Assembly: GCA_031279015.1 (NCBI GenBank)
Contig: JAITJI010000101.1
Coordinates: 1,582-65,581, forward strand
Length of the DNA stretch: 64,000 bases
From: Spirochaetaceae bacterium
GTDB lineage: Bacteria; Spirochaetota; Spirochaetia; Treponematales; Breznakiellaceae
Direction: 5' to 3'
Shown one piece after another: positions 3,854 to 49,320 of the stretch; position 1 is the stretch's first letter, and each line of letters begins with the position of its first letter. The position numbers and the translations under genes were made by a program. The notes beneath the pieces were generated by a model. The model worked only from the letters and a program-made list of their open reading frames with translations. It ran no database searches and was not told where the DNA came from.

Positions 3854-3879
3854 AAACAGCAGGGGAGGCGCTTATTGGC

Positions 3880-4665: not shown

Positions 4666-4766
4666 GGGAAAATTACGTAAAGTTTTTAGCGGTCTCTTGT
4701 TGATTTTTCTTGACCTTTGGGCTTCTGAATAAGTATGTTTTTAATAAACAATCTTTAGTAATTTTT

Positions 4767-30933: not shown

Positions 30934-30940
30934 TCAAACC

Positions 30941-31600: not shown

Positions 31601-31647
31601 ATTCGATCCCTTTTGTATATCATATCAACCTGCTCCCGGCGCCGGCT

Positions 31648-32406: not shown

Positions 32407-33260
32407 AGCCCTTCTCCCTGGTTTTTCCCGAAGTATGCCGAAATGAGTTTTGTCGCCGTGTTGATAACCACAACCAGTACGATAAGTACCATTGCGGTGG
32501 CAAAAGCTATACCAAAGTCATCGGGATTGATAGCTTCTTTGGTCAGATAGTACAGATGGATGGTGAGGGTACGGCCGGAATCAAAAATGGATCTGGGGAG
32601 GTTCCGGGTAATACCCACAGTGAGGAGTACCGGTGCAGATTCCCCCACTACCCGCCCGATGGCCAGGATGACGGAGGTGACGATTCCCGGCAGAGCCGAG
32701 GGAAGCACTACATGGATGATGGTTTGAAACTTGGTCGCCCCCAGGGAAAGGGAAGCTTCCCGAAAAGAAACAGGGATGGTCTTGAGGGATTCTTCGGTAG
32801 TCCTGATGATCACCGGAAGTATCATGATGCTTAGGGTACAAGCCCCGGCGAGAATCGACTGACCAAACCTGAAAAAACGGCAAAACATCAAAAGGCCAAA
32901 CAGACCGTAGAGAATGGAGGGAATCCCCGCTAAGGTTTCAATGGCAAGCCGGAGAGCCCGGACAAGCCCCGAATTGCCGGTATACTCATTCAGAAATATA
33001 GCGGTCATAAGGCCGACAGGCAGGGCGATGACCAGGGACACTACCACCACATAGAGGGTAGTAACCAGCATGGGGAAGATACCGTTTCGGGAAGAACTAG
33101 TTATAAAGGAAAGGTTGATGTATCCTACAGAGAACCGGACAATATAGACGAGGATAAAAGCCAGGGCGCCTATGACAAAAACCAGCGCTGCCACCATAAG
33201 GCAATACAAAAGGCCATCCTTCAATTTCCGGCTTTGACGTTTCATGCTACGCCTCCGCAT
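32403..33260 (-). CDS. pstA: phosphate ABC transporter permease PstA
   Basis: 285-aa permease with an EAA-like loop ([13 protein letters not shown]). ATGA overlap with pstB. Confidence 0.9.
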
Positions 33261-34437: not shown

Positions 34438-34439
34438 GG

Positions 34440-35279
34440 TTAGCCTTTTACCGAAATCCAACTCTTCTTCACAATGGCCTGTCCATCAGAAGACAGGACC
34501 CATTCCAGAAAGCGTTTGGTTTCCTGGTGTGAAGAAGCGTTTTTAGTAAGCAGGATGAAGGGCCGGGATATCCGGTAGCTGCCGTTTATGACGTTTGCCG
34601 TAGTGGCCGCTACCCCTTCAATATTGACGGTCTTAACGGAGTTGTCCACCGATCCCAGGGAGATATACCCAATGGCATCGGCATTCCGGGATATTTCGGC
34701 CTTTATTGCTCCGGTTCCGTCAAATTCCGTGGCCCCAAGGACAAGCTGGTCTTTGAGTTCGATGAGTTCCTCAAAGGCCCCCCGGGTTCCGGAACCAGGT
34801 TCCCGGGAAACAACGGCGATTTTCCCGCTTTTGCCGCCCCCGATCTGGCTCCAGTCGTTTATCCTTCCGGCGTAGATATCCCGGATCTGGGGGATGGTTA
34901 GGTTGGTAAGAGGATTGTTGCTGTTCACAATAACCGCAATACCGTCTATGGCAATGACCAATTCGTCAAGGCCGGAACCCTTTTCCGCAGGACTAAGCTC
35001 CCGGCTGGACATCCCAACTTCGCTGGTTCCCGCCGCCGCAGCCTTGATGCCATCGGAAGAACCGGTACCGTTGATATTGATCTTTACATTGCTCCGGATC
35101 TTGGCGTAATCCGCCGCCAACAATTCCATAAGGGGTGTAACCGATGTTGAACCGGCTACCTCAATCGTGTAAGGCGCATCGGAACCACCGGAGCCTCCCT
35201 CAGATCCCCCTCTGGCAAAGACCGTACTCAGACAAATACCGCCAAGGCAAACCGCAGCAAGAAAGGTTTTGATTTTCAT
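34440..35279 (-). CDS. pstS: phosphate ABC transporter substrate-binding protein
   Basis: Signal peptide and Gly/Ser linker, then VAGSTSVTPL...GTGSSDGIKA...GSGTRGAFEE (PBP-like PstS motifs). Confidence 0.9.
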   Translation of the reverse strand: MKIKTFLAAVCLGGICLSTVFARGGSEGGSGGSDAPYTIEVAGSTSVTPLMELLAADYAKIRSNVKININGTGSSDGIKAAAAGTSEVGMSSRELSPAEKGSGLDELVIAIDGIAVIVNSNNPLTNLTIPQIRDIYAGRINDWSQIGGGKSGKIAVVSREPGSGTRGAFEELIELKDQLVLGATEFDGTGAIKAEISRNADAIGYISLGSVDNSVKTVNIEGVAATTANVINGSYRISRPFILLTKNASSHQETKRFLEWVLSSDGQAIVKKSWISVKG

Positions 35280-35504: not shown

Positions 35505-37097
35505 TCAGTTCCCCAGGATCTTCAGGGCTTCTTCCCGGTAGCAGTCCATGATGTAGGGAATACCCGTTACCTTTACACATTCCCCGGTAAGGGACATAAT
35601 ATCCTTCCGGCTTATCACCCCGATGTTGAAACGCCGGGCGCCAGCCATAAGCTGCTGCAGGCCCACTTTGATCTTATCGGCATAGCTGTAAATACCGACG
35701 GCCCCAAGGGGAATATTTTTGATTTCATCGGTCCCTACGATGTTTTTGACCTTTTCGTAGTTAACAAAGATCTCCTCCGGGGTCTTGCCAAAGTCAGAGA
35801 CCGTCTTGGGAAGGCTCCCGTCCCTGATCCACTGGGCAATATTCTTGCCCACCATTCCGGGGATCATCAGGCCCCGGCCCATACAGACCGCCTTGGCGTA
35901 TGGAGCGCCCAGAGCAAGGGCCTTAAACACACCATCCTCAGAGCTGAAACCTCCGGCAAAGGCCAGATCCGGAACCCGTTTGCCCTTTGCCGCAAGGATA
36001 GCGGCGAATTCCCAGGCGGCGCTGTGAAGGTAGATCGAGGGGATGCCCCACTCTTCCATCATCCGCCAGGGACTCATCCCCGTACCCCCGGAGGCGCCAT
36101 CGATGGTGAGGAGATCGATATGCGCGTCGGAACAGTATTTGATCGCCATAGCCAGCTCCTTCAGGCTGTAGGCACCGGTTTTAAGGGTGATCCGCTTAAA
36201 GCCCAAACTCCGCAGCCGGGCCACCTCCTGCATAAAACCTTCTTCGGTGACAAAACCCAAACGGCTGTGGCGCTCAAACTCCTTGATAGCCCCGGACCTG
36301 TACGAAGCCTGGATGATGGGGTCCGAGGGATCCGGCGTGACGATGTAACCCCGTTTTTGCAGTTCCAGAGCTCGTTCCAACTGGGCAACCTTGATCTCTC
36401 CGCCAATACACTTGGCGCCCTGCCCCCATTTTAGTTCAATCGTCTCAATTTTATGTTTATCGATGATGTATTCGGCCACCCCAAGATTGGTATCCTCCAC
36501 ATTCATCTGGATGAGGATCTCGCCATAACCCGAATGGTACTTCCGGTACGCCTCAATGCGCCGGTCCATATCCGGGGCCTTGGTAACCTTCTTTGCATTG
36601 TTGAGCTCCAGCGCCGGGTCGATACCGCAGACGTTTTCTCCACAGACGATGGTAACCCCCGATATTGCCGCCCCTACGGCAAAATGCTCCCAGTTTTTCC
36701 GGGCAATTTCCGTGGAACCCAGGGCCCCGGTAAAAATCGGCGCCGCCATCTTTACCTTCTTATCCCAGCCATAGGCCGTTTCCGTGCTGACCATGGGGAA
36801 GCGGGCGTTGTCCGGATCCGCCGGCACCCCGGGAGGCAGGCCTTCCGCACCTTGGGCATAGCCCTGGATGTTGAGGTGGGAATAGTCCACGGGGTAATTC
36901 TTATCACCCCCGGCGGTGACATCCCCAAAAGGCCCCGGATAGATGAGTTCCCGGCCCCGGAAGGTGGCCTTGAAGATTTCACAGTTGCCCCGGCATCCAT
37001 CAACGCACCGTGAACACAGACCACTGCAAGGCACTACACTTGCGGAACGGTTTACCGATCTTGTGGCATCATTACTGTTCGGTCTTTGCAGATTCAT
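35505..37097 (-). CDS. FMN-binding glutamate synthase family protein (GltB FMN-domain-like, stand-alone) with a Cys-rich N-terminus
   Basis: About 530 aa. CSGLCSRCVDGCRGNC cluster, TIDGASGGTGMSPW and GGFSSEDGVFKALALGA (Glu_synthase TIM-barrel motifs). The start MNLQRP at 37097 is preferred. Confidence 0.8.
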   Translation of the reverse strand: MNLQRPNSNDATRSVNRSASVVPCSGLCSRCVDGCRGNCEIFKATFRGRELIYPGPFGDVTAGGDKNYPVDYSHLNIQGYAQGAEGLPPGVPADPDNARFPMVSTETAYGWDKKVKMAAPIFTGALGSTEIARKNWEHFAVGAAISGVTIVCGENVCGIDPALELNNAKKVTKAPDMDRRIEAYRKYHSGYGEILIQMNVEDTNLGVAEYIIDKHKIETIELKWGQGAKCIGGEIKVAQLERALELQKRGYIVTPDPSDPIIQASYRSGAIKEFERHSRLGFVTEEGFMQEVARLRSLGFKRITLKTGAYSLKELAMAIKYCSDAHIDLLTIDGASGGTGMSPWRMMEEWGIPSIYLHSAAWEFAAILAAKGKRVPDLAFAGGFSSEDGVFKALALGAPYAKAVCMGRGLMIPGMVGKNIAQWIRDGSLPKTVSDFGKTPEEIFVNYEKVKNIVGTDEIKNIPLGAVGIYSYADKIKVGLQQLMAGARRFNIGVISRKDIMSLTGECVKVTGIPYIMDCYREEALKILGN

Positions 37098-37215
37098 ATA
37101 ACACTCTCCATTCGTTGAATTACACCTCTCTTTTAGTAACAATTATTCTACCATGGGTTATTGAAAATGCAAGGGGCATTGGAAATACCCGTTAAATCGT
37201 ATAAGGTATAACGGT

Positions 37216-37533
37216 ATGACCGAATCAACAAGGCGAATCATTGAAGCAATAGAGGCGGTTCCTCCGGGCAAAGTATCCTGTTACCGGGACATCGCCTTTA
37301 CCGCAGGACTGCCCAACGGCGCCCGGCAGGTGGTCCGGGTTCTCCACTCCATGACCCGGGTCAGGAAGCTTCCCTGGCACCGTATCATAAAGGCCAACGG
37401 TCACATCGCCTTTGCCCCGGGAGATGGGCTGGAACTACAGGCGGCCCTGCTCCGCGCCGAAGGAGTCGAGGTCTCCGCTACAGGAACGGTTGACCTGGAC
37501 CGGTTTGGGCTTACTTCGTTTGACTGCTTTTAA
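37216..37533 (+). CDS. alkyltransferase-like (ATL) protein: an MGMT-fold DNA-binding domain with Trp replacing the active-site Cys
   Basis: 105 aa. VPPGKVSCYRDIA...GARQVVRVL...LPWHRIIKANG, that is PWHR in place of PCHR, as in E. coli YbaZ and S. pombe Atl1. Confidence 0.8.
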   Translation: MTESTRRIIEAIEAVPPGKVSCYRDIAFTAGLPNGARQVVRVLHSMTRVRKLPWHRIIKANGHIAFAPGDGLELQAALLRAEGVEVSATGTVDLDRFGLTSFDCF

Positions 37534-37810: not shown

Positions 37811-38824
37811 TTAATTCTGTTCCCATTGGCCATCCCCTGTTTCAAGGGCGGCGATAAATTCCTCCGCACCGGCAACGATCCCAATATCAGCGTAACGGAA
37901 AATAGGGGCATTTTTATCCGGATTCACCGCTATCAGCGTGGAGACGGATTCGATACCCGCCATGAACGCCGCCGCCCCCGATACCCCGACAGCCACGCAG
38001 AGTTCCGCAGCGCAACGGAGCCCCGACTGCCCGATAATTCCGGCAATTTCCCCCCAGCCGTTAAGGGCTGCGGGACGGCTAAAGCCCAGGGGGGCGCCGA
38101 AGCGTCCGGCGGCGCGCCGAAGCCGGACGCAGGCGGCCTTAGTCCCCAGACCCCGTCCGGCGGCAAAGATCAGCGGAGCTTTTTCCAGGGACCTGGCGGG
38201 AAAGACCTCGGACTGTTCGTAGTCCATAATCCAGGAAGGCAGGCACAGAGGGGCCGCCGGACGGTTTTCTACCCGGTTTTTTGTTTGGGAGGAACCGTTT
38301 CCCGCAGCCCGGACTATTTTGCCGCCGCTGACAGTCACCACCGCGGGCAGCTCTTTAATTTCCGCAGCCCAATCAAGGTTTGAACCGCAAACCTTTTTAC
38401 GGGCAAAAAGCCGTTCTCCCTGCCGGAACAGCATCCTGGTTTCCGGGAAACAGCCACAGCCAAGCCGGGCGGCAAGGCGTACTCCCAGTTCGTGACCGGC
38501 CAGGGAAGAAGGAAACAGGATAAGACCGGGCGGCCGTTCCGCACAGAGGCCCTCCAGCCGGTGGAGGCAGCCTTCGATATTCCGGATGTTCCCGCCGTCC
38601 ATACCGTCCGTATGGGCAAAGCCGCCGCCCGGAAGACCGCAAACAACTACGTCAGGGACCGGGGACCATGCCGGAGACATACCTTGGGACAGGGAGTCAG
38701 GAGAGACGCCGGGCAGCCAGAATTCCACCTGGTCCTCATTTTTTTTGACGGGAACGATAAGCTCCCAGAGGAGGGCGGGGTCCGATGCCTGGAACAGGAC
38801 AAAGGCTATGTTCACTGTCTCCAT
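37811..38824 (-). CDS. divergent electron-transfer-flavoprotein alpha-subunit-like protein
   Basis: C-terminal ...GFSRPAALNGWGEIAGIIGQSGLRCAAELCVAVGVSGAAAFMAGIESVSTLIAVNPDKNAPIFRYADIGIV aligns with the EtfA FAD domain (SR..vd.gw...QiGqtG...Y.a.GISGaiQHlaG...IvAIN.D..ApIf..AD.G.V). The start METVN at 38824 overlaps the EtfB-like stop by 13 nt. Confidence 0.7.
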   Translation of the reverse strand: METVNIAFVLFQASDPALLWELIVPVKKNEDQVEFWLPGVSPDSLSQGMSPAWSPVPDVVVCGLPGGGFAHTDGMDGGNIRNIEGCLHRLEGLCAERPPGLILFPSSLAGHELGVRLAARLGCGCFPETRMLFRQGERLFARKKVCGSNLDWAAEIKELPAVVTVSGGKIVRAAGNGSSQTKNRVENRPAAPLCLPSWIMDYEQSEVFPARSLEKAPLIFAAGRGLGTKAACVRLRRAAGRFGAPLGFSRPAALNGWGEIAGIIGQSGLRCAAELCVAVGVSGAAAFMAGIESVSTLIAVNPDKNAPIFRYADIGIVAGAEEFIAALETGDGQWEQN

Positions 38825-39774
38825 CCATCCAGGTATTCCGTCCGGACCCAGGCGACGGATTGGGCCAGTTCGGCGCCGGCGGGAAGGAAACGGCAAATCT
38901 TCCGCCGTTTTTCCCGGCTAAAAAGCGGAACCCCGCCGGGGTCCCAATTCCCCCCGCCCGGCCCGATCCCGCCGGCAACAGGCGGTTGCGGTTTTTCAGC
39001 CTCCCGTCCTGAGGCGGCCATCCTGGCCCGTAAAGTTACCGCCCGGAGAGCCGCCACGGGACCGTTCCCCAACACCGCCAGCAGGGGCAGCCGGACCCTA
39101 AGCCGTTCCCGGCCGGAGTCGGTCATCCGTTTTACTTCGATCCCTCCGGCGCAGGGGCTAAGTTCCTCGACTCCCGTCAGCGCCGGAATCCCGAGGAACT
39201 CCGCCAAAAACAAGGGGACCGTACCGGTATCGGCCCAGCCCGCCTGGCGGCCCGTGAGAATGAGATCGTAGGCAGCGGGACCAAGGCAACTTCCCAGGAT
39301 AGCCGCAATGTGCCGGGGCCGGAATTCGGAGGCCCCAAGGTTCAATAGCGATACGTCAGACCCTGCGGGGGGAAGGGGGGCGTTGGGGGGGGCCTCCCCC
39401 GCAGAGGGGGCAGCGGAAGACGGGGGCCGGAGGTCCCCGTCTGAAGCGAGGGGGAGACTTCCCCCCTTGTCTTGCCGGCATTGCTCCAAAGCGACATCAC
39501 TCAGATCCAGTACCCGTTCAAAGCCTGCGGCGAACAGAGTCTTACAGAGAGACAACGGGAGGGGAGCTGCGGTAATGGCCGTACATTCCGTTGTTTCGCC
39601 GGAGTCTTCCCAGGCTGAACGCAGCCGCAACGCCGTCTCCAGGGCGCTTTCGTCGAAACATCCGAAAATCCGCTTGACATAGCCTAAACCGGCGGAGAGG
39701 CTAAAGTTATCCCAATCCGCATCAACCACCTGATCAAAATCGGGGACGGCCTTAAAACAAACAGCGATCTTCAT
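38812..39774 (-). CDS. divergent electron-transfer-flavoprotein beta-subunit-like protein with a Pro/Ala/Ser-rich insertion
   Basis: MKIAVCFKAVPDFDQV is the EtfB N-terminus, and LILTGRQAGWADTGTVPLFLAEFLGIPALTGV resembles the EtfB core. A low-complexity insert of about 45 aa (DGDLRPPSSAAPSAGEAPPNAPLPPAGSD) is present. Confidence 0.65.
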   Translation of the reverse strand: MKIAVCFKAVPDFDQVVDADWDNFSLSAGLGYVKRIFGCFDESALETALRLRSAWEDSGETTECTAITAAPLPLSLCKTLFAAGFERVLDLSDVALEQCRQDKGGSLPLASDGDLRPPSSAAPSAGEAPPNAPLPPAGSDVSLLNLGASEFRPRHIAAILGSCLGPAAYDLILTGRQAGWADTGTVPLFLAEFLGIPALTGVEELSPCAGGIEVKRMTDSGRERLRVRLPLLAVLGNGPVAALRAVTLRARMAASGREAEKPQPPVAGGIGPGGGNWDPGGVPLFSREKRRKICRFLPAGAELAQSVAWVRTEYLDGWRQ

Positions 39775-39779
39775 GGGCC

Positions 39780-41204
39780 TTAATCCGTCAGCAGGACGCC
39801 CTTGTTCAGTATCCGGTTCGGGTCCAGGGCCCCTTTAAGTTTACGGAGAAGCGGGTAGGAACTGCCGTGTTCCTCCGGCATCCAGCGGGTGCGGTACTTG
39901 CCCGATCCGTGGTGGTGGGCGATACTGCCCCCCCGCTTTAGCGTTTCTTCCATGATCACCGTAATAACCTTCATGTAATCGCTGCGGGCGGATTCGGCCC
40001 CGTTTTTCACAATAAAACCAAAGGTGAAGTAGATGTTGGTCCCCTGAACGTAGCTGTGGGAGGAGTGCCCTCCGATGAAAACCAGGTTCGGCATTTCCCT
40101 GGGAAGCCGTTCCCGTATGGCCTCGTATATCGCGCCGATGGCGGACCAGGGGGCGGAGATCTCGCAGGTATCCGCCACAACGCCGTGACGGTAGTAAACC
40201 GGTTCGTCCATGTGATAACAGACATCGTTCCGGGTCTTGAGCCAGGACTCAACGGGCCTGGTCCCCAGGCCGGTAGTTTCATAGCGCCCGGCAATTTCGG
40301 CGATCCCCTGCCCGGTGGCGGCGGTAACGGAAGCGGGCCCCTCGGCAAGAAAGAGGAGGACGCAGTAATCGTCCTGGACAGAACCGCTGAACAGGCGCTG
40401 TACCTCCTCGGCATCGTGGAGCCGTACCACTGCGGGCCGGTAGCCTTCTACCATCACTTCCCGGATAAGCTTAAGCCCTGCGGACATACCTTTGATCGCC
40501 CAGGCCCACATCCACCGGGTCTCGGGAGTATGACGGAATATTTTGACGGTCACTTCGGTGATGAAACCCAGCATTCCCTCACTGCCGATAAAAAGATGCC
40601 GCAGATCGGGGCCCACCGAACGGCGGGGACTGTTCTTTATCCGGATAAGCTCACCGTCCGCAAGCACCACCTCAAGGCCCACCAGGAGATCCTCAATGCC
40701 CCCGTAGAGGGTAGAAAACTGACCGATGCTCCGGGTGGCTACAAGGCCCCCCAGATGGGCCAGGGGCAGGGACTGGGGGAAATGGCCGGAAGTAAAACCC
40801 CGTTCATTTAGGTAATTCTCCAGATATTCCAGGGGAGTCCCGCATTTGGCGGTGATCATCATATCTTGTTCGTTAAGGGCAATGATTCCGTTCATCTCAG
40901 AACCATCCAGAATGACTCCGCCCTCCTCCGGTTCAATACTCTGGGTAACACTGGACCCGCCGGTACGGGGAACCGTATCAATCCGGTTTTGATTGAGGAA
41001 GACCAGGGCCTTGGATACCTCTTCCGTATCACGAGGCTTTACCACACAGGCCGCCTGGGGAACCCAATCCTTACCGTCAAACCGTTCATACTGCCTAAAG
41101 CCGATGTAATCCACCGACGCCTTTCTGATTATCTCCGGGTCGTCTTGTACCCGGTCCCCGCCCAGTACGGCCCGTAATCCACTGATGATCGCCTGCTTAT
41201 CCAT
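39780..41204 (-). CDS. FAD-linked oxidase (PCMH fold), AGPS/YgcU-like
   Basis: 474 aa. VPRTGGSSVTQ, GHFPQS..LAHLGGLVATRSIGQFSTLYGGIEDL and GSEGMLGFITEVTVKI. This looks nearer to alkyl-DHAP-synthase-type enzymes than to GlcD-type, judged by eye. Confidence 0.8.
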   Translation of the reverse strand: MDKQAIISGLRAVLGGDRVQDDPEIIRKASVDYIGFRQYERFDGKDWVPQAACVVKPRDTEEVSKALVFLNQNRIDTVPRTGGSSVTQSIEPEEGGVILDGSEMNGIIALNEQDMMITAKCGTPLEYLENYLNERGFTSGHFPQSLPLAHLGGLVATRSIGQFSTLYGGIEDLLVGLEVVLADGELIRIKNSPRRSVGPDLRHLFIGSEGMLGFITEVTVKIFRHTPETRWMWAWAIKGMSAGLKLIREVMVEGYRPAVVRLHDAEEVQRLFSGSVQDDYCVLLFLAEGPASVTAATGQGIAEIAGRYETTGLGTRPVESWLKTRNDVCYHMDEPVYYRHGVVADTCEISAPWSAIGAIYEAIRERLPREMPNLVFIGGHSSHSYVQGTNIYFTFGFIVKNGAESARSDYMKVITVIMEETLKRGGSIAHHHGSGKYRTRWMPEEHGSSYPLLRKLKGALDPNRILNKGVLLTD

Positions 41205-41253: not shown

Positions 41254-41628
41254 TCATGTCCCGGCCTCAGGACGAAGATCCATTGAGCGGGACGCTATTA
41301 CATCCACGCCGGAATTGCAAATATTTTTTACGATAATGTCCCCACACTTCAGGGGGGCGCTCACTTTCATTTTGTAAAGTACCCGGAGACACCGGCCAAT
41401 CAGCGCCTTAGGCACTTCTTCCCGGCTTATCACCGGCAGCCGGGGCAGGACTCCCCCGGCTATCGCCACGGTGGTGGTGAGCATCCGCGTCGGTTCCCGG
41501 TACTCGTGGATGCCGTGCTTTTCACCCCGAGGACACTCATTGCCGCTGACGGTGATACTCCCCGCGGTTTCGGTAACCGTGAGGCGGCAACTGTTGGGAC
41601 AGACGATACAGATGAATTCCCTTGTCAT
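41254..41628 (-). CDS. DUF1667 domain protein (small Cys-rich subunit of GlpA/NOX-type complexes)
   Basis: MTREFICIVCPNSCRLTV...GNECPRGEKHG...PTRMLTTTV. AGGAGAG lies upstream of the ATG at 41628. Confidence 0.8.
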   Translation of the reverse strand: MTREFICIVCPNSCRLTVTETAGSITVSGNECPRGEKHGIHEYREPTRMLTTTVAIAGGVLPRLPVISREEVPKALIGRCLRVLYKMKVSAPLKCGDIIVKNICNSGVDVIASRSMDLRPEAGT

Positions 41629-41738
41629 AATCTCTCCTGACTTTATAATACCACTCCGTGCCATGTATGGGAGGGGGAAGTCGCGGCAGCTTCACCGCCG
41701 GGCCCTGCGGCCTGCGGTACAGACGCCTCTGCTGCGGC

Positions 41739-42977
41739 CTACCCCCGCATCTCGACCAGCAGGGGTCCCTTGGTTTCGAGCTCAAAACTGAGCATCTCCG
41801 GGGGTGTGACATGGCGGCATCTCCTTTGCAGCCGGACCTGATCCCCGGTAGAACACAGCAGATCCGCCGCCGCTACAGGGTTTTTTACCCGCAGGAAGAA
41901 GGCGGTCTTTCCATCGGAATCCTCCCGGCGAATCCGCTGGGGTACCACAAAGTTGACGTTCTCCCCGGCTTCCACCGGGTCCCAGTCTGGGACGGAGAGT
42001 TCCCCCCGCAGAAACGCCGCCGCACCCCGGGCGGCGGCCTCCCCGGACTGGGATACATAGTCCACCAGGTCAAAGACCGCCGCCACATTTCCCGCAGCGA
42101 AGATCCCCGGCACACTGGTCATACAGGACGAGTCTAAGACCGGCCCCCTGGTCCGGGGATCAAGTTCTATCCCTGCCTTAACGGACAATTCGTTCTCCGG
42201 GATCAGTCCTACCGCCAGTACCAAAAGATCGCAGGGAACCACGGTTTCCGTGCCGGGGAGGGGCTTACGGTCCGGCCCAACCTTGACAGTGGTAACAGAC
42301 TCAAGCCGGTCCCGTCCCCGGATCCGGACGACGGTTTCCGAAAGGTGCAGGGGAATGTTAAAATCGTCAAGGCATTGCACAATGTTCCGGGTCAGCCCGC
42401 CGGGGTTCTCCATCACTTCGTACACTCCCTTTACCTCAATGCCCTCCAGGGTCATACGCCGGGCCATGATGAGTCCGATATCCCCGGAACCGAGGATCAC
42501 CGCAGTCCGCCCCGGCAGGCAGCCTTCCATGTTAATGTAACGCTGTACCGCCCCGGCGGTGAGCACCCCTGCAGGCCGGTCCCCGTAGATCAACACCTGG
42601 GCGGCTGTCCGTTCCCGGCAACCCATGGCCAGGATGATCGCCCCGCACTCAATGTCAAGTATTCCGTCCCGCCTGTTGCAGGCAAAGATCCGCCGGTCCG
42701 CGCCGATCTCAAGGACCGTGGTTTCGGTAAGGGTTTCGATACCCGATGTCTCCACCTGGTCGATAAAAGCCTGGGCGTATTGATTCCCCGACAAGCGGCA
42801 GCCAAAGCGGTGTATCCCAAAACCATCGTGGATACATTGCTGGAGGATGCCCCCCAGATCCGCGTCCCGCTCCAGAAGGAGTACCCTTTCTACACCCTGG
42901 CGCTTGGCTTCCAGGGCTGCCGCCAGTCCTGCGGGGCCCGCGCCGATTACAGCAATACCGGTATGCAGTTTTTTCAT
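41739..42977 (-). CDS. NAD(P)/FAD-dependent pyridine-nucleotide-disulfide-type oxidoreductase (NOX-like partner subunit)
   Basis: Two dinucleotide folds, IAVIGAGPAGLAAALEA and AVILGSGDIGLIMA, plus GIFAAGNV. ATGA overlap with the upstream gene at 42974-42977. Confidence 0.85.
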   Translation of the reverse strand: MKKLHTGIAVIGAGPAGLAAALEAKRQGVERVLLLERDADLGGILQQCIHDGFGIHRFGCRLSGNQYAQAFIDQVETSGIETLTETTVLEIGADRRIFACNRRDGILDIECGAIILAMGCRERTAAQVLIYGDRPAGVLTAGAVQRYINMEGCLPGRTAVILGSGDIGLIMARRMTLEGIEVKGVYEVMENPGGLTRNIVQCLDDFNIPLHLSETVVRIRGRDRLESVTTVKVGPDRKPLPGTETVVPCDLLVLAVGLIPENELSVKAGIELDPRTRGPVLDSSCMTSVPGIFAAGNVAAVFDLVDYVSQSGEAAARGAAAFLRGELSVPDWDPVEAGENVNFVVPQRIRREDSDGKTAFFLRVKNPVAAADLLCSTGDQVRLQRRCRHVTPPEMLSFELETKGPLLVEMRG

Positions 42978-44725
42978 GGTTCCCCCCTGCCCGCTTCAGG
43001 CCGGGTATCCGCCGCCAGTATATTGCTGCCCTCTCCCCGGAGGGTGATTGCCGTCAAGTCCTTCCCCAGTTCCCGGGCCAATAGTTCCACTACCCGGCTC
43101 TGGCAGAACCCCCCCTGGCAGCGGCCCATGCCGGCCCTGGTTCGCCGCTTTACCGCGTCCACCGATACCGGGGGAACCGGAGAACGCATGGCCGCGAGGA
43201 TCTCCCCTTCGGTGATACTTTCGCAACGGCAGACGATCCTGCCGTAGGCCGGGTCCCGGCGGATAAGCTCGTCCTGCTGCTCCCGGCTTAAATGGCGGAA
43301 TTCTTTTTCCCGTTCCCTGACAGGATTGAAGTTGGGATCCCTTTCCAGGGGGAAACCGTCTTTTGCTGCGGCCCTGGTGAAGATATCCTCCACCATTTCG
43401 GCAATCGCCGGCGCTGCCGCCAGCCCCGGCGACTGGATGCCCCCCACGTTGATGAATCCTCCGGTAACCGGGGATAGCTCAATAAAAAAATCCTCTTTGT
43501 AATCCGCCGGACGGTTTCCGGTGAAGAAACGGATAATATCGCCATTGTTGATACCGTAATCTATCCCCAGGGACATGGCGTATGCCAGATCTTCCGGCGT
43601 GGAACTCAGGTCTTCCTTGTCAGGGACCTCCGTCGCCGAAGGGCCCATGAGTATGTTCCATTCCGGGGTACGGCACATACCGCCGCCTTTGGACTCGCTG
43701 TTTGATTTCTTTTGGGCGCTTCCCCCCAGGACCCCCGCCAGGGAGTGATAGACAGGCTTGCGGTTCTTGTCCAGAATCGCGATAGTCCCCTTGCGGGGGT
43801 GGATAGTGTAGCACTTGTCCCCGGCCATGGCGGAAATTTCATCGGCGTATACTCCGGCGCAGTTGATGATGTAGGACGCCTCTATGATGCCCCGGCTGGT
43901 AAGGGCTCCACTTACCCGTTTGTCTTTTGTCAAAATATCCGCCGCAGTACAATTGAACAGAAACCGGACTCCGTTCATGGCGGCGTTCTCCGCCAGGGCT
44001 ATCGCAACTTTGTAAGGCTCTACCAATCCCATGGAAGGAAGCCATATCGCCGCCGCCGGTTCTATCCCCTGTTCTGCAAATCCCGGCTCCAGGCGCTTGG
44101 CCTGTTCCCCGTCAAGGACCTGCGGGTTGAAAACCCCCATGGCACAGGCGCCTTCCGCGGCTTTTTCAAGAAGAGGCAGCGCACGGATGTCGGTAACGGC
44201 CCCCATGAGGCCGCAGCGCTGAAGTTCAAACCCCAGATCCTGCGCCCATTGGGTGTACATCTCGTTTCCCCGGAGGTTAAGCTTTGCCTTGAGGGTTCCC
44301 GGTTTTACATCATGCCCCGGATGGATATTGCCGTTGTTCGCCTTGGTCGCCCCGGAGGCCACGTCATCTCCCTTGTCAATGACGAGGATGCGGAGGCGGT
44401 ACTTTGATAATTCCCTGGCAATGGCGCAGCCGGATATACCCGCGCCGATGATAAGGGCGTCAACAGTATCAATGCGCCCTGCCCTTAGTCCCATTTCCCG
44501 GTACGGACCGTAGTCCTTGCGGGGAGCGGGCCTTCCCCGGACGGAAAGCTCGTTGACTACGTTCCTAACTCCGGACGGCGCCGCCGCCAGATGCCCGGCG
44601 GCAACGACTTCTTCCCAGGCGGCGCATTCGCCCCGAATGGTCAGAATGCCCCGTTCATCTATAGAGAGTTCCGGCTCCACATTCGGGAGGGTTTTTTTCA
44701 AGGTATCTTTGATTGATTCCAGCAT
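42974..44725 (-). CDS. FAD-dependent (GlpA/GlpD-like) dehydrogenase with an N-terminal BON-like domain and a C-terminal BFD-like [2Fe-2S] domain
   Basis: 583 aa. BON-like ILTIRGECAAWEEVVAAGHLAAAPSGVRNVVNELSV, then ALIIGAGISGCAIARELS (FAD fold), then CRCESITEGEI...RAGMGRCQGGFC (BFD-like). Confidence 0.85.
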   Translation of the reverse strand: MLESIKDTLKKTLPNVEPELSIDERGILTIRGECAAWEEVVAAGHLAAAPSGVRNVVNELSVRGRPAPRKDYGPYREMGLRAGRIDTVDALIIGAGISGCAIARELSKYRLRILVIDKGDDVASGATKANNGNIHPGHDVKPGTLKAKLNLRGNEMYTQWAQDLGFELQRCGLMGAVTDIRALPLLEKAAEGACAMGVFNPQVLDGEQAKRLEPGFAEQGIEPAAAIWLPSMGLVEPYKVAIALAENAAMNGVRFLFNCTAADILTKDKRVSGALTSRGIIEASYIINCAGVYADEISAMAGDKCYTIHPRKGTIAILDKNRKPVYHSLAGVLGGSAQKKSNSESKGGGMCRTPEWNILMGPSATEVPDKEDLSSTPEDLAYAMSLGIDYGINNGDIIRFFTGNRPADYKEDFFIELSPVTGGFINVGGIQSPGLAAAPAIAEMVEDIFTRAAAKDGFPLERDPNFNPVREREKEFRHLSREQQDELIRRDPAYGRIVCRCESITEGEILAAMRSPVPPVSVDAVKRRTRAGMGRCQGGFCQSRVVELLARELGKDLTAITLRGEGSNILAADTRPEAGRGEP

Positions 44726-44735
44726 CCGTTCCCCT

Positions 44736-44757
44736 TTGAATGTACACTAATTCGTAC
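44736..44757 (-). promoter_or_regulatory. operator copy 3: GTACGAATTAGTGTACATTCAA (minus strand), 11 nt upstream of the dehydrogenase ATG
   Basis: The reverse complement of 44736-44757 matches GTAC-N8-GTACATTCAA, as found at 45915 and 47690. Confidence 0.6.
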
Positions 44758-44759
44758 TT

Positions 44760-44789
44760 ATGGTAGCTTAGCCGCCGCCGGTCTGTCAA
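44760..44789 (-). promoter_or_regulatory. candidate promoter TTGACA-N18-TACCAT (minus strand) for the flavoprotein operon
   Basis: TTGACA is the reverse complement of 44784-44789, 10 nt past the regulator stop. The operator begins 2 nt after the -10-like hexamer. Confidence 0.45.
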
Positions 44790-44798
44790 GAAACAATT

Positions 44799-45725
44799 TT
44801 AATAAATCTGCATTTCCTTGCGGTGTTCCAGGACGGCAGTTTGACTTTCGGCAATAAGAGGAGGACGAAGAAACACTTTAAGAATATTCCCGATGTTGTA
44901 GTTGTGCTTGTTGATAAGAATAGCCGGAAGAAGGTAGGTTGATCCCCGTTCGTATTCCAGGGGAATCGCCGGAATTTTATATTCCTGTATCCAGGTTTCG
45001 TTCCGGTAAACCAGAAAATCGATCTCCCCGGAAATAAAAAGCGCCCGGCAGGTAACATAGGGACGCTCAATGATCCGTACCTTTTTCCCCTTACAGAGCC
45101 GTTTGGTCAAGACATATTGATCCACGCTGGAAGGATCCACCGCTATGGTATCTCCGCAAGAGATATTCCAAACTCCGGGCCGCTTGCTGCAAAGTACAAA
45201 GGGCGGCGAATATATGCAGCCGTCCAGAAGCATCATGATATCCAAATCGGGATACCTGGCGGCGATCCGGGTTGCCGTGGCCTGGGAAGTAACAGCGAAA
45301 TCGTAGATCATCCGGGATAGGGCGGCTCTCCGTTTATCCGCACCATGAATAAAGGCAAAGTTGAAGGGTACCGGACACTCCCCCATGACATCACAAATTC
45401 CCGTGGCAAGTCCGGCAAGATCGCCGGTAATTGCCGGAGGCATGGTAGCGGTGATATACTCAAGTCCTCCCAGCCGGAAAAGAGCCGCCTGGTTTACGGC
45501 GCTGATATAGGTTCCCATTTTACCCCGTTTTTCCAGGATAATAGCCCCACTGCCCTGTAACCCTTCCAGGGCCTTTTGCACGATTCCCCGGGAAGAAGCG
45601 TGTTTTTGGGTAAATTCATGGATGGTCGGCAGCCGATCCCCGGCGGAAAACCCGATGAGATCTCTGGCGATATAGGTATTGATTAACCAGGATTTCTTAT
45701 ATTTATGAGAAAGATGCTCATGCAA
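44799..45725 (-). CDS. GntR-type winged-helix regulator with a YhfZ-like C-terminal domain
   Basis: 308 aa. IARDLIGFSAGDRLPTIHEFTQKHASSRGIVQKALEGLQGSGAIILEKRGKMGTYI is a GntR HTH. The long C-terminal domain and overall length resemble E. coli YhfZ, from memory and not searched. Confidence 0.65.
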   Translation of the reverse strand: MHEHLSHKYKKSWLINTYIARDLIGFSAGDRLPTIHEFTQKHASSRGIVQKALEGLQGSGAIILEKRGKMGTYISAVNQAALFRLGGLEYITATMPPAITGDLAGLATGICDVMGECPVPFNFAFIHGADKRRAALSRMIYDFAVTSQATATRIAARYPDLDIMMLLDGCIYSPPFVLCSKRPGVWNISCGDTIAVDPSSVDQYVLTKRLCKGKKVRIIERPYVTCRALFISGEIDFLVYRNETWIQEYKIPAIPLEYERGSTYLLPAILINKHNYNIGNILKVFLRPPLIAESQTAVLEHRKEMQIY

Positions 45726-45869
45726 AGGATCTCATCCCCCAACTATATACTTTCATACAAACTGAATTATATAAAAAAAGGAGAAATTGTCCATTACGGC
45801 TGTCTTAAGATCATGCCGGAACCACCAGTCCTCCTTTGCTCCTCTCAAACAAAAAATGCAAAAAAATAT

Positions 45870-45899
45870 TTGACAAGAATGTAATTTGGCTGGTAAAAT
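45870..45899 (+). promoter_or_regulatory. sigma70-type promoter, TTGACA-N15-TGgTAAAAT
   Basis: TTGACA at 45870-45875 and an extended -10 TGgTAAAAT at 45891-45899. Confidence 0.55.
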
Positions 45900-45914
45900 G
45901 AGGAATATCGGATA

Positions 45915-45936
45915 GTACATAAAAATGTACATTCAA
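45915..45936 (+). promoter_or_regulatory. operator copy 1: GTACATAAAAATGTACATTCAA
   Basis: Starts exactly 15 nt after the -10. Contains the palindrome GTACAT-aaaa-ATGTAC. Confidence 0.6.
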
Positions 45937-45985
45937 TAATTCCGGCCGGTTATTGATCCGAAAAAAGTATGCCAAGGAGGACTAA

Positions 45986-46663
45986 ATGAAGATTGAAACA
46001 AGCGAGTATTTCAAAAAACCGGATAAGGGTACGGTATTGGTAACAGGAGCCATTTTCCTGTGGGTATTTATCGTTAATTTTTCCTGTATCTCTTTCATTT
46101 TTCCCGTATTTGACAAATTCTTGACTGCCAGCGGTAAATTCTTCCCAAATGTATACAATTCATACTCAACTCCCACATGGCCCATGTTCTTTGTAACCAT
46201 CTTATACTTCATCATGGGTAACAATCCTAAAAAGAGCCTTGAGATATTCTGCGGCGGACTGTTTGGGTTTTTGATGACGCTGTTGCTTTTCTGGGCAACT
46301 TGGCAATTGATGGGACAAAGCGCGGTATTCAGAGGAGAACCGGGTTTGCTGGAATTCAAATACGCTTTTATTCCGGTTATTTTTGTTATATTGGGACTGA
46401 TCATCATGGGCGGAACCGTCTGTCCCCTCATTTTTAATAACGCAGCTTTTACCTATCTGATTGCAGGCTCGATCTCTATAGGGAAGTTCTATTATACCCC
46501 CAACGGAATAGAACTTTATACCCGGGAAATCGGCAACAACGTCCTTGTGTTCCTAATCGGCGGCGGGATTTTTCTTGCCGGCTGTATAGTGATTCAGAAA
46601 CTGCTGATCCAATGGCTGACGGCTCAGGCTATGAAGGCCGCCGCCCAAGCCGGGGCTAAATAG
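45986..46663 (+). CDS. hypothetical polytopic membrane protein (about 6 TM) with an Ala/Lys-rich C-terminal tail
   Basis: 225 aa and hydrophobic. AAGGAGG lies upstream of the ATG. No family recognised. Lies in a lower-GC patch, judged by eye. Confidence 0.6.
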   Translation: MKIETSEYFKKPDKGTVLVTGAIFLWVFIVNFSCISFIFPVFDKFLTASGKFFPNVYNSYSTPTWPMFFVTILYFIMGNNPKKSLEIFCGGLFGFLMTLLLFWATWQLMGQSAVFRGEPGLLEFKYAFIPVIFVILGLIIMGGTVCPLIFNNAAFTYLIAGSISIGKFYYTPNGIELYTREIGNNVLVFLIGGGIFLAGCIVIQKLLIQWLTAQAMKAAAQAGAK

Positions 46664-46686
46664 AGCCGGCCGCTCTGGAAAAAGAA

Positions 46687-46713
46687 ATCCGCCTGTGTGA
46701 CCCCCAGGCGGAT
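46687..46713. terminator. hairpin ATCCGCCTG-n9-CAGGCGGAT between convergent genes
   Basis: 9-bp GC-rich stem flanked by A-rich and T-rich runs (aaagaa / tgtgtttcttt), so it could act in both directions. Confidence 0.5.
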
Positions 46714-46738
46714 GTGTTTCTTTGCGGGAAAAATCTAC

Positions 46739-47494
46739 TTATCTGATCGAAGCGTAAAGGAATTCTTCAACAACAGGCGTCCACCATTCCATATAACCCG
46801 CCTTTGTGGGGTGGGTTTCATCTTTTAACCAGAGTTTCCGCTGTGCTTTGGTGATATTGTTGAAGTCTGCATCGTTCCAGAGGTCCAATACGCCGATATC
46901 CCATACCTTCGCCAGTTCGTTTAAGCGATCAACCATCTTAGCATACCGTTCGTCATTGCGCTTAGAGCATGAATAAAACAGCACGGGACAATTCCAGGTT
47001 TGTTGGGCATAGGTGATAATGTACTCTATGGCGCCGGTTATCGTGGTCTTATCGTAGGCGCTTAAATTACCCGTTGGTCCCACAATATCACCCAAATTAA
47101 GCATATCCACCGTACCGCCGCTGGTATCATTAGTGGAAAGCTGGCAAATAAACAGATCCACATCCGCGTTTTTGTCAAATTTTGAACCGAATTCCATCCG
47201 GTGAACATAGGAATTTTCATTTTTATCCATCAGGGTCGTACCCGTAACGGCTTCTACCACGGCGGTACATTGATCACGTTTGGCAATATAGTGGGGAAAC
47301 GCCATCCCCTGACTCCCGTAGCCAACCGTAACGGAAGAACCCAGGAAATAAAGGGTTTTGCCCTTCAACGGACTGTTCGTCAACACTTCTATTTTTTCAA
47401 CATCATAATCCGTTGAATTACCGTTTGGACCGCAGCCCGTAAGAGTTACCGCCGCCATCAATAATACGATAATTCCTATCGACGATTCCTTCAT
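46739..47494 (-). CDS. SGNH/GDSL-family hydrolase lipoprotein
   Basis: Lipobox LTGC. Block I FLGSSVTVGYGS, block III QLSTNDT, block V DETHPTKAGY. The start MKESS at 47494 is preferred. Confidence 0.8.
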   Translation of the reverse strand: MKESSIGIIVLLMAAVTLTGCGPNGNSTDYDVEKIEVLTNSPLKGKTLYFLGSSVTVGYGSQGMAFPHYIAKRDQCTAVVEAVTGTTLMDKNENSYVHRMEFGSKFDKNADVDLFICQLSTNDTSGGTVDMLNLGDIVGPTGNLSAYDKTTITGAIEYIITYAQQTWNCPVLFYSCSKRNDERYAKMVDRLNELAKVWDIGVLDLWNDADFNNITKAQRKLWLKDETHPTKAGYMEWWTPVVEEFLYASIR

Positions 47495-47644
47495 TGTTTT
47501 CCTCCAAATTATCAAACTAAGGGTAATTGTATTGCGTCATGGCAAAAAATTCAAGCATAACAAATTTTACGCTGCCATTCCTTCCTGTTGCCGGAACACC
47601 CCGGGCATGAAGCCGCCAAAAATTCCATAAATATTAAAAAAAGT

Positions 47645-47674
47645 TTGACAGATTCAAATTTTACCTGATAAAAT
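47645..47674 (+). promoter_or_regulatory. sigma70-type promoter, TTGACA-N15-TGaTAAAAT
   Basis: Same architecture as 45870-45899. Confidence 0.55.
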
Positions 47675-47689
47675 AAAATTTACCGGATT

Positions 47690-47711
47690 GTACATAAAAA
47701 CGTACATTCAA
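47690..47711 (+). promoter_or_regulatory. operator copy 2: GTACATAAAAACGTACATTCAA
   Basis: Again starts exactly 15 nt after the -10. Matches copy 1 at 21 of 22 positions. Confidence 0.6.
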
Positions 47712-47784
47712 CGGTTCCCAATCCGGTGTTCCGGATAGACATGGGTAACGTAGTTATCCCTAATTGAAATGCATGGAGGGTTTT

Positions 47785-49320
47785 ATGAGTGAAAAGTACA
47801 TTATCGGTATAGACAGCGGTACCCAAAGCACACGGGCAATCATGTATGACAGCAAGGGTACCCGGATTGCCAGAGGAGCGGCGGAGCATCCAAGGTTGCT
47901 TTCTCCGCATCAGAACTGGGTGGAGCATGGCGTGAATGATATTTGGGAAGCCCTGCGGACTGCCGTGGCGGATATGTTTACCCATTTTACGGGAAATGCC
48001 GCAGATATTGCCGGCATTGGAATATCCAGCCAGCGGGCCTGTTGTTTGGCCCTTGATAAGGAGGGGAACCTTCTTTACAATCCCATAAGCTGGCTTGATG
48101 AACGCTGGCGCATGAATATTCCCTCCCTGGGACAGGTTACCAATAATAGCCCGGACCCCTTGTACCAGTTATTCTGGCCTTACTATTCCAAAACGAATTG
48201 GTTTAAGTTCAATATGCCCGAAGTCTACGAAAAGACCGTAAAATACCTGGGGGTTTCCGGATATATAGGCTATAAACTCACCGGCGGCTTTTATGAATCC
48301 ATTTCCAACAGTATGGGCTGGCCTTATGATGTCATCAACTGGAAGGCCTATGACGGGGATGTGGAAATTGAGTCCGTAGGAATGCGGCGGGATCAAATAG
48401 CGGAGCCAGTTCTTGCGGGAACCGTTATAGGCAAGATTACTCCGGAGGCGGCGGCGGCCACCGGCCTGCCCGAAGGCTGCCCCGTATCTGCCGGCGCCGC
48501 GGATAAACAATGCGAACTTCTGGGCGCGGGGACGGTAAAACACGGACAGGCGTACATCACCCTTGGTACCTTGAGCGGGCTGGATATTGTTTGCAACGAA
48601 TATAAACCGGCGCCTGATTTTTCCTACTTCACCTATTTAAGCGCCTTCCCCAAACTTTACAATTATGAATCCATGGCGAACAGAGGTTTTTTGCTGATAT
48701 CCTGGTTCCGGGATAATCTGGGAGACGGATTAAAGGCTGCGGCCAAAGAAGCGGGAATTTCGGTGGAAGCCCTGCTGGACCGTGAAGCAGAGGCAATCCC
48801 CGCAGGTTCCGAAGGCTTGGTAGTCCTGCCGGATTGGTCGTCCTCCGCCGCCCACCCCAGCGGCAAGGGAATATACCTGGGCTTTGATGACCGGCATAAA
48901 CGGGGACACATGTTCCGTTCCCTGGTGGAAGGTATTATCATCCAGATCAAACTTGGTACCGCAAAAATGACCGATTACCTTGGCCTGCCCATCAACGAAC
49001 TCTATATCGGCGGCGGCGGCAGCAAGAGCAACTTTACCGCCCAGGTAATTGCTGATGTATTTAATGTGCCGGTGTATCGTACCAGGGAATCGGAGAACTG
49101 TTCTCTTGGCGCGGCAATGTGCGGAGCGGTAGGAGCGGGCCTTTATACCGACCTGGCAAAGGCAATGGAAGGCATGGGTAAAAATTATGATCAGTTCCTG
49201 CCGAATAAAGGCAACCACGATCTGTATGAAGCCCTGAGCGACAAAGTCATCCAAAAACTCTATCCGGCGCTGGAAAACATTCTGAAGGATCTGGCAGAAC
49301 TTACCACGAATAAGCAGTAA
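47785..49320 (+). CDS. FGGY-family carbohydrate/polyol kinase
   Basis: MSEKYIIGIDSGTQSTRAIMYD (phosphate-1 motif), and GGGGSKSNFTAQVIADVFNVPV...GAAMCGAVGAG (FGGY C-terminal motifs). The ATG at 47785 follows GGAGGG. Confidence 0.85.
   Translation: MSEKYIIGIDSGTQSTRAIMYDSKGTRIARGAAEHPRLLSPHQNWVEHGVNDIWEALRTAVADMFTHFTGNAADIAGIGISSQRACCLALDKEGNLLYNPISWLDERWRMNIPSLGQVTNNSPDPLYQLFWPYYSKTNWFKFNMPEVYEKTVKYLGVSGYIGYKLTGGFYESISNSMGWPYDVINWKAYDGDVEIESVGMRRDQIAEPVLAGTVIGKITPEAAAATGLPEGCPVSAGAADKQCELLGAGTVKHGQAYITLGTLSGLDIVCNEYKPAPDFSYFTYLSAFPKLYNYESMANRGFLLISWFRDNLGDGLKAAAKEAGISVEALLDREAEAIPAGSEGLVVLPDWSSSAAHPSGKGIYLGFDDRHKRGHMFRSLVEGIIIQIKLGTAKMTDYLGLPINELYIGGGGSKSNFTAQVIADVFNVPVYRTRESENCSLGAAMCGAVGAGLYTDLAKAMEGMGKNYDQFLPNKGNHDLYEALSDKVIQKLYPALENILKDLAELTTNKQ

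Follow-up and report, generated by a model that had tools for sequence, protein, structure and literature searches.

GntR-type repressors act on palindromic operators, for which Rigali et al. (2002) reportedly described a GT-Nx-AC rule. Glycerol and erythritol catabolism is organized in regulons such as E. coli GlpR/glp, the GlpP-glpK-glpTk/NOX/DUF1667 clusters of Clostridia and Thermotoga, and Brucella EryD/eryABC, with regulators of the DeoR family, the GlpP antiterminator and SorC. In the anaerobe Acetobacterium woodii, the lactate dehydrogenase/Etf operon lctBCD is controlled by the GntR-type LctA. In the literature searched (subscription-only papers and regulon databases lay outside it), no operator, ligand or regulon was found for any YhfZ-type protein, nor any characterization of HTH_41/PF14502/PF14503 or of the gene combination described here. 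The subject of this work is a 64,000-nucleotide stretch of a Spirochaetaceae bacterium (assembly GCA_031279015.1, contig JAITJI010000101.1, positions 1,582 to 65,581; henceforth the window), in which three copies of a GTAC-based palindrome probably serve as operators for a YhfZ-type GntR-like regulator encoded beside them.

Three sites, three promoters and a YhfZ-type regulator

The pattern GTAC-N8-GTACATTCAA, scanned as GTACNNNNNNNNGTACATTCAA, has exactly three exact matches in the window, each oriented toward the gene downstream of it. Copy 1 (GTACATAAAAATGTACATTCAA) lies at 45915-45936 on the forward strand before a membrane-protein gene, copy 2 (GTACATAAAAACGTACATTCAA) at 47690-47711 on the same strand before an FGGY kinase gene, and copy 3 (GTACGAATTAGTGTACATTCAA) at 44736-44757 on the reverse strand before a flavoprotein operon. 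Copy 1 opens with a perfect 16-bp inverted repeat of 6-4-6 structure, GTACAT-AAAA-ATGTAC. By an arithmetic estimate (2 x 64000 / 4^14), chance would supply about 5e-4 exact matches per window; at up to two mismatches the window holds no fourth match, and dinucleotide shuffles average 0.20 such matches. On a position-weight matrix (PWM) made from 49 comparative sites, oriented toward the regulated gene, copies 1, 2 and 3 score 35.8, 32.5 and 28.6 bits, and shuffled sequence reaches 17.6 bits. Exact triplication against a near-zero chance expectation, with only three high-scoring sites in 64 kb, counts for operators. A candidate fourth site at 27576-27598 (16.8 bits) was rejected, as it lies in a response-regulator coding region and scores within the shuffled range; an artefact of restriction-modification or GTAC avoidance was likewise rejected, GTAC occurring 219 times in the window against ~228 expected.

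The promoters of all three units are strong ones of the sigma-70 type. Copies 1 and 2 begin 15 nt after their promoters, at 45870-45899 and 47645-47674 (both forward), which share the form TTGACA-N18-TAAAAT with a TG-extended -10 and match the consensus at 11 of 12 positions. Copy 3 begins 2 nt after the -10 of the flavoprotein operon promoter (44760-44789, reverse strand; TTGACA-N18-TACCAT, 10 of 12), which fits inside the 73-nt gap after the regulator stop codon, and abuts the ribosome-binding site AGGGGA. The hexamers of the membrane-protein gene promoter are kept in relatives while its spacer varies; TTGACA and TAnnAT of the operon promoter are kept in six relatives. Seven genomes were compared at the operon: in six the site begins 2-3 nt past the conserved -10 and in one, locus L073, 14 nt past it; so placed, the site covers the expected start point. 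Promoters close to consensus whose sites lie at or past the start point are typical of repressors. What is found here, as in a repressor-operator regulon, are repeated, specific sites that overlap or directly follow the core promoters of their target units, and from this placement repression is the likely mode. The regulator gene has a predicted promoter of its own (45766-45793, reverse strand; TGGACA-N16-TATAAT); no operator stands at it in the window, the nearest site being ~120 nt upstream of its -35.

The original prediction, made from the letters of the window, had given the same coordinates, strands and orientation for the three copies and the same geometry for the promoters (a TG-extended TAAAAT pair at 15 nt, TTGACA-N18-TACCAT at 2 nt). 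It had also taken the gene at 44799-45725 (reverse strand) for a YhfZ/GntR-like regulator, and profile matches to HTH_41 and YhfZ_C agree. The 308-residue product combines an N-terminal winged helix-turn-helix with a C-terminal periplasmic-binding-protein-like sensor domain, scoring 55.7 bits against Pfam HTH_41 (cut-off 25) and 109.2 bits against YhfZ_C (cut-off 35); the score against the NCBIfam YhfZ_full equivalog NF041241 is 198.7 bits, under the cut-off of 260. By both domains and by fold the protein is a member of the YhfZ family and not the equivalog of E. coli YhfZ. An AlphaFold model from a 34-sequence alignment (mean predicted local distance difference test, pLDDT, 92.7; predicted template modeling score, pTM, 0.88) places a two-lobed alpha/beta domain after the winged helix; residues 35-77 form three helices and then a beta hairpin at pLDDT >90. 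The best fold match in the PDB is the YhfZ C-terminal domain 2ozz (E 3e-16, template modeling score 0.80 on the target), followed by MetQ/TauA-type solute-binding proteins and LysR effector domains. The modeled fold fits a small-molecule-responsive repressor. Wherever the GTAC core occurs, the recognition helix SRGIVQ(K/N)AL is kept.

Conservation and consensus of the element

Regulator homologues were collected from 78 loci (denoted by L numbers), including metagenomic contigs, some labeled as Treponema sp. metagenome-assembled genomes (MAGs). The loci of the closest relatives were retrieved by exact protein look-up; a peptide-pattern scan of metagenomes had missed them. The homologues form a graded series from 89% identity (metagenomic contigs) to ~33% (Clostridia). 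Enrichment was counted over 39 non-duplicate loci with regulators 36-89% identical (Treponema MAGs, Clostridia, Oscillospiraceae), the near zone being defined as 300 nt upstream plus 250 nt downstream of the regulator gene. GTAC-N8-GTAC is present in the near zone of 28 of these loci. Exact sites number 39 in the 19.6 kb of near zone against 10 in the remaining 438 kb, an 87-fold enrichment (Poisson P ~1e-60), and several of the ten are Treponema kinase operators, which stand over 300 nt away from the regulator. Scanning with the PWM brings in one-mismatch sites beside the regulator in L010, L012, L015, L016, L024, L026 and L071/72; every site of at least 25 bits across ~850 kb of locus DNA adjoins a gene of the cluster.

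In loci from Clostridia, Christensenellales and Oscillospiraceae, where regulator identity is just 36-46%, the core stands 30-50 nt upstream of the regulator start, and a second copy often lies ~165-245 nt upstream, facing a divergent kinase gene. Some 25 Clostridial loci share one layout, identified by tblastn with the window proteins: a divergent FGGY kinase, then YhfZ, GlpA-like, NOX-like, DUF1667, FAD oxidase, EtfB and EtfA, with identities to the window of 55-69% for the flavoproteins and only ~30% for the kinase. There, in contrast to the window, yhfZ heads the operon, and the one promoter that serves both has a site starting 3-9 nt past its -10; such a layout, read from sequence, implies negative autoregulation. 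Clostridial kinase-side sites are preceded by a conserved TTGCAT, and in their second box TACACT is read 17 nt later; the two could, as a possibility only, be a promoter with the operator in its spacer, on which the promoter scanner made no call. Where regulators are 24-29% identical, the gene order is rearranged (GlpA ... oxidase ... FGGY, YhfZ).

The Treponema loci L001, L068, L073 and L075 have the layout of the window, including the membrane protein and an esterase gene of the GDSL type. Sites orthologous to copy 1 occur in L001, L004, L067, L068, L069, L073 and L075, to copy 2 in L001, L068, L073 and L075, and to copy 3 in L001, L067, L068, L069, L073 and L075. In six Treponema relatives every promoter-operator class covered by the contig is kept (the contigs of L067 and L069 end before the kinase gene): the -35, the extended -10, the 15-nt or 2-3-nt gap and the operator persist while spacers and leaders diverge. 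In L070 and L071 a unit of major facilitator superfamily (MFS) transporter, DUF362 and FGGY genes replaces the small membrane protein and still lies behind a site; L070 lacks the flavoprotein operon. In L067 (Treponema MAG contig JAITSE010000012), a 1138-residue called protein with DAO and GATase_5 hits (1919-5335) stands behind a flavoprotein-type operator and the rest of the operon is absent, which may reflect a different architecture or an assembly join.

Observed directly are the sites, where they lie on the promoters, how far they are conserved, and that they accompany the regulator and the same targets in two phyla; the sites are co-inherited with the regulator gene and its targets in other genomes, as in a regulon. 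Local enrichment and the co-traveling gene set together support a link between regulator and operator. The original prediction had proposed this link and a search of relatives for the motif. The 87-fold enrichment, the recurring gene set and the promoter-operator classes kept in Treponema speak for the former, and the latter finds the core with YhfZ homologues from Treponema to Clostridia, the full 22-mer recurring only in close Treponema relatives. Its 22-nt operator stands as three exact copies, while the family-wide element is shorter (GTACA-N6-yGTAC plus ATT), the TCAA end being lineage-specific.

The 49 sites give the consensus GTACA-nAannn-(T/C)GTAC-A-T-T. The eight GTAC positions served to find the sites, and conservation was counted outside them: position 5 is A in 44 of 49; the base before the second GTAC is T in 37 and C in 12; and the three bases after it are A in 44, T in 40 and T in 37. 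The C-A-(A/G) that follows is conserved in the close Treponema set only (17, 17 and 21 of 21 sites). On these counts, the 22-mer is a lineage-specific form of a 16-19-bp element with a core 16-bp palindrome, GTACA-N6-(T/C)GTAC. Because TGTACA is itself palindromic, both readings of the element, an inverted repeat and two boxes spaced by 12 bp, fit equally. At the membrane-protein and kinase sites the distal flank cGGAT(a/t) is conserved as well; together with the proximal ATTCA it may complete a partly symmetric GA-nn-GTAC...GTAC-nn-TC frame, in which the tail would be an outer operator contact.

Divergent versions of the element are also seen. In L003, a Spirochaetales MAG whose regulator is 63% identical, both operators have the form ATAC-N8-GTAT (ATACGTAAAAACGTATATT and ATACAAATTTGTGTATATTTGA, at 2560-2590 and 3680-3705). 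Boxes of a GTATA type with the same 12-bp spacing lie ~100-150 nt upstream of the GlpA-like gene in L035, L039, L048-L050, L054, L057, L062 and L064 (e.g., TGTATACAGGATTGTATATTC in L048), loci with regulators 24-29% identical, a rearranged cluster and the helix SRGTVQKAL. These boxes overlap AT-rich, promoter-like sequence and may be a diverged operator. Co-variation of recognition helix and operator (SRGIVQ(K/N)AL with GTAC, SRGTVQKAL with GTATA) was considered and not adopted; it is suggestive only, and L003 breaks the pattern.

Mode of control and rival explanations

The favored explanation, which we hold with high though incomplete confidence, is that the three motifs are DNA operators of the regulator 44799-45725. 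From sequence we infer the binder, repression, dimer stoichiometry, effector and substrate, as follows. A regulator dimer would recognize the 16-bp palindrome GTACA-N6-(T/C)GTAC, i.e., two TGTACA-like boxes 12 bp apart, flanked on the gene-proximal side by ATT (ATTCA in this lineage). The site would cover the transcription start of the flavoprotein operon, and ~+8 to +30 of the kinase and membrane-protein genes. Bound regulator would block initiation or promoter escape and so act as a repressor, until its C-terminal domain binds a small molecule, most likely the kinase product or a related phosphorylated C3 compound, and DNA is released. Release would induce together the kinase, the putative uptake or membrane component, and an oxidation module composed of glycerol-3-phosphate dehydrogenase (G3PDH)-like, alkyl-dihydroxyacetone phosphate (DHAP) synthase-like and electron-transfer flavoprotein (ETF) components.

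Several observations weigh against this explanation. Copies 1 and 2 lie 15 nt past the -10, in the transcribed leader, further downstream than a classic occluding operator, and a simple symmetric dimer leaves the conserved asymmetric ATTCA tail and the cGGAT flank unexplained. Five of the 39 loci depart from the pattern: L002, L013, L017 and L020 have no recognizable site, and L003 has only its variant operators, alongside a recognition helix that is not obviously changed. Upstream of E. coli K-12 yhfZ there is no GTAC-N8-GTAC, only an unrelated ATGTG...CACAT repeat; the motif was therefore rejected as a family-wide YhfZ operator and is taken to be subfamily-specific. The basis is computational throughout, and the motif scan covered the 64-kb window of the source genome and the homologue loci.

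The atypical placement bears on the mode of action. YhfZ could bind these sites as an activator or dual regulator rather than as a simple repressor relieved by inducer, since positions of ~+8 to +30 for copies 1 and 2 are atypical for steric occlusion and, with promoters already near consensus, the need for activation cannot be judged from sequence. This is unlikely: a near-consensus -35 with an extended -10 (11 of 12) needs no activator, sites at or after the start point are a repressor trait, and the Clostridial regulator, with a site on its own promoter, has the classic arrangement of negative autoregulation. The identity of the binder raises a different doubt. The sites might be real operators of a regulator encoded elsewhere, e.g., a global catabolite regulator, with YhfZ using different sites; the window yhfZ promoter has no site, and the link to YhfZ is drawn from sequence. 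We regard this as very unlikely, given that the motif follows yhfZ through two phyla, in Clostridia mostly no more than 50 nt from the gene start, and even into the differing context of L070 (MFS-DUF362-FGGY, no flavoprotein operon), that no other DNA-binding regulator is conserved in these loci, and that ~800 kb of flanking DNA holds no high-scoring site.

Least credible is that the motif acts in RNA, as a leader hairpin (GUACAU-AAAA-AUGUAC) or as a site for an RNA-binding protein controlling stability, termination or translation. All copies do lie downstream of the -10, GTAC...GTAC can always pair, copy 3 abuts a ribosome-binding site, and in the membrane-protein and kinase leaders RNAalifold predicts a stem (CGGAU/AUCCG, CCGG/CCGG) that encloses the motif, with a few two-sided changes. 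At the flavoprotein operon and at Clostridial yhfZ promoters, however, the motif is 2-9 nt past the -10, which would put the 5' end of the transcript inside the first box or at its edge; conservation of the boxes is at the sequence level, without covariation; consensus folds are weak (-5 to -8 kcal/mol); Rfam gives no match; and the element co-occurs with a DNA-binding protein. An RNA role of the motif itself is accordingly judged unlikely.

The leaders have features of their own. The flanks of operators 1 and 2 can pair on the forward strand (45908-45966, CGGAT...ATCCG; 47683-47728, CCGGAT...ATCCGG) into a predicted 5'-terminal stem around the operator, and relatives show related stem changes (CGGCGGA/TCCGCC; TGGATCC/GGGTCCA). 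In these enclosing stems, 2-3 pairs are changed on both sides in few sequences and at weak energies, the GTAC boxes being invariant; the stem might be a stabilizing one. A permissive Rfam scan of 44000-48500 found no described RNA family; its one hit, a sub-threshold match to the fluoride riboswitch, falls within the GDSL coding region. A second leader element, GGGTAACGT(A/T)GTTA(C/T)CC(C), often followed by TTTGAAAGA, occurs once in the window (47743-47760, forward), between operator and ribosome-binding site, as a hairpin with a 7-bp stem or a palindrome; it recurs in the kinase leader of L075 and in the membrane-gene leaders of L001, L068, L069 and L073, and thus switches leader between relatives.

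Genes of the proposed regulon, possible pathway and known systems

Pfam and NCBIfam profile searches bear out the gene assignments originally proposed (FGGY kinase, membrane protein, flavoprotein/ETF operon). The membrane-protein gene (45986-46663, forward) encodes a multi-pass protein of 225 residues that is confined to spirochaete versions of the cluster and has no Pfam match even at E = 10 and no NCBIfam match. Homologues 79-92% identical adjoin the regulator in L001, L003 and L004, and unannotated genes of 213-234 residues hold the same position in L067-L069, L073 and L075. The kinase gene (47764-49320, forward) is assigned to the FGGY family of carbohydrate and polyol kinases by Pfam FGGY_N/FGGY_C and likely starts at the ATG at 47786, after GGAGGG; its best NCBIfam models are XylB (215 bits) and LsrK (198), also GntK, with GlpK at 138, all far under their cut-offs.

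The flavoprotein/ETF operon, defined by Pfam and NCBIfam, runs from 44725 to 37811 on the reverse strand and comprises six genes. The first (42974-44725) encodes a GlpA-like FAD dehydrogenase with a C-terminal BFD-type [2Fe-2S] domain, the second (41739-42977) a pyridine-nucleotide-disulfide oxidoreductase ('NOX' partner), the third (41254-41664) a DUF1667 protein ('MOX' partner), and the fourth (39780-41204) an FAD-linked oxidase most similar to alkyl-DHAP synthase. The last two encode ETF beta (EtfB, open reading frame 38812-39774) and ETF alpha (EtfA, open reading frame 37811-38896); comparison with L068 suggests that the true start of EtfA is probably near 38815. Directly downstream of the operon, a second FAD oxidase (~515 residues) and EtfBA set is found in L069 (8717-11971), L071 (12798-16008) and L073 (16452-18287); the window lacks it, and what follows EtfA there is an unrelated 105-residue open reading frame on the opposite strand (37216-37533) and a Glu_synthase-domain protein (35505-37142).

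A GDSL-type esterase lipoprotein gene (46739-47515, reverse strand; lipoprotein signal LTGC) separates the membrane-protein gene from the kinase gene and has its own promoter (47554-47526), no operator, and synteny in all close Treponema relatives. By annotation, the other flanking genes look unrelated: pstSCAB-phoU-phoR, a CHASE2 cyclase, an M48 peptidase and a GH38 mannosidase. The phosphate-uptake block upstream of the regulon (28434-35279, reverse strand), an ordinary one made up of a PBP_like_2 binding protein, two permeases, an ATP-binding cassette (ABC) ATPase, PhoU and a PAS histidine kinase, looks unrelated to the regulon.

The conserved set consists of FGGY kinase, YhfZ, GlpA, NOX, DUF1667, ADPS-like and EtfBA genes. 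According to bioRxiv 10.1101/2024.02.29.582781 (citing Koga 2019) and PMC7282089, the GlpA/NOX/DUF1667 triad is a G3PDH complex of the Thermococcus kodakarensis type, which also occurs beside glpK/glpP in Clostridia. The adjacent GlpA-like, pyridine-nucleotide-disulfide oxidoreductase and DUF1667 genes of the window correspond in gene content to such a complex. The fourth operon protein, a 'GlcD-like' oxidase at first sight, scores 164 bits to alkyl-DHAP synthase (4bby, in two stretches that cover both domains), 103 to glycolate oxidase and 73 to LctD. AHHHGSGK/SHHHGVGK, IYFTF/IYFYF and VRLHD/IRLMD align with 4bby, and HHHG is present in every cluster orthologue. The HHH loop is thus kept, and the conserved Tyr and Arg correspond to active-site residues of ADPS. 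By similarity, then, operon gene 4 is an alkyl-DHAP synthase (AGPS/ADPS)-like flavoprotein, closer to eukaryotic ADPS than to glycolate oxidase or LctD. A bacterial ADPS-like enzyme beside EtfBA and a G3PDH-like complex is an unexplained combination.

The conserved set contains no isomerase or aldolase; its absence, the triad and the ADPS-like oxidase together suggest that the predicted chemistry of the regulon proceeds on a glycerol-phosphate/DHAP-like C3 skeleton. The polyol or sugar catabolism first proposed is upheld as regards a kinase joined to a dehydrogenase/ETF module, and is shifted from a generic sugar toward C3 compounds. Naming the substrate from transporters was dropped: none is conserved in the Clostridial loci, and some Treponema have MFS and DUF362 genes. 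A fuller scheme can be drawn only tentatively and is doubtful: an undescribed anaerobic pathway, common to termite-gut-type Treponema and gut or digester Clostridia, in which the FGGY kinase would phosphorylate a glycerol derivative (e.g., a 1-O-alkyl/acyl-glycerol) or another C3 polyol, the Thermococcus-type complex would oxidize the product to a DHAP derivative, the ADPS-like flavoprotein would process that derivative further and pass electrons to ETF, possibly with electron bifurcation, and the YhfZ-type regulator would sense a phosphorylated intermediate. An ether- or ester-glycerol substrate is speculation. If the C3-polyol reading is true, it would provide the first ligand, operator and physiological role for the YhfZ subfamily.

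The locus and its relatives supply an operator consensus (GTACA-N6-yGTACATT), a defined target set and a natural series of operator variants. The regulon joins a non-GlpK FGGY kinase, a Thermococcus-type G3PDH-like complex and an ADPS-like flavoprotein with ETF, to which spirochaetes add a novel membrane protein. Its genes are conserved from Treponema to Oscillospiraceae, which makes the operator a handle for further pathway genes in complete genomes, and a derepressed mutant could be used to identify the substrate. Most of the interest lies in the unexplored pathway that the regulon marks out.

In its predicted design this is an ordinary local regulon of the GntR repressor-operator kind, yet its binding site and target pathway were not found described. 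As in GntR repressors such as FadR and HutC/NagR/DasR, a winged helix-turn-helix with an S-R-x-x-V-x-x-A-L recognition helix is paired with a palindromic operator on GT..AC cores, here (T)GTAC(A) with x = 0, and the sites stand on promoters of a catabolic gene set beside the regulator gene. By contrast, the effector domain is neither all-helical, as in FadR, nor chorismate-lyase-like, as in HutC, being YhfZ_C with a type-II periplasmic-binding-protein-like fold, and the operator pairs two TGTACA boxes at a 12-bp distance and is extended asymmetrically by ATT(CA). E. coli/Shigella YhfZ (2ozz, NF041241) has the same two Pfam domains and is the best structural match; its gene lies among the amino-sugar/PLP-type (pyridoxal phosphate) genes php-yhfS..Y, where the upstream GTAC-N8-GTAC is missing. 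With A. woodii lctBCD the locus shares a local GntR-type regulator and an FAD-linked oxidase plus EtfB/EtfA module in an anaerobe; it differs in having an oxidase with an HHH loop that is closer to ADPS (164 bits) than to LctD (73 bits; 7qh2), a G3PDH-like triad and a regulator of another subfamily. From the glycerol and erythritol regulons it departs in regulator family, in a kinase that is no GlpK equivalog and in the added ADPS-like flavoprotein and EtfBA, while sharing with them an FGGY kinase, a GlpA/GlpD-type flavin dehydrogenase for the phosphorylated product and one local regulator.

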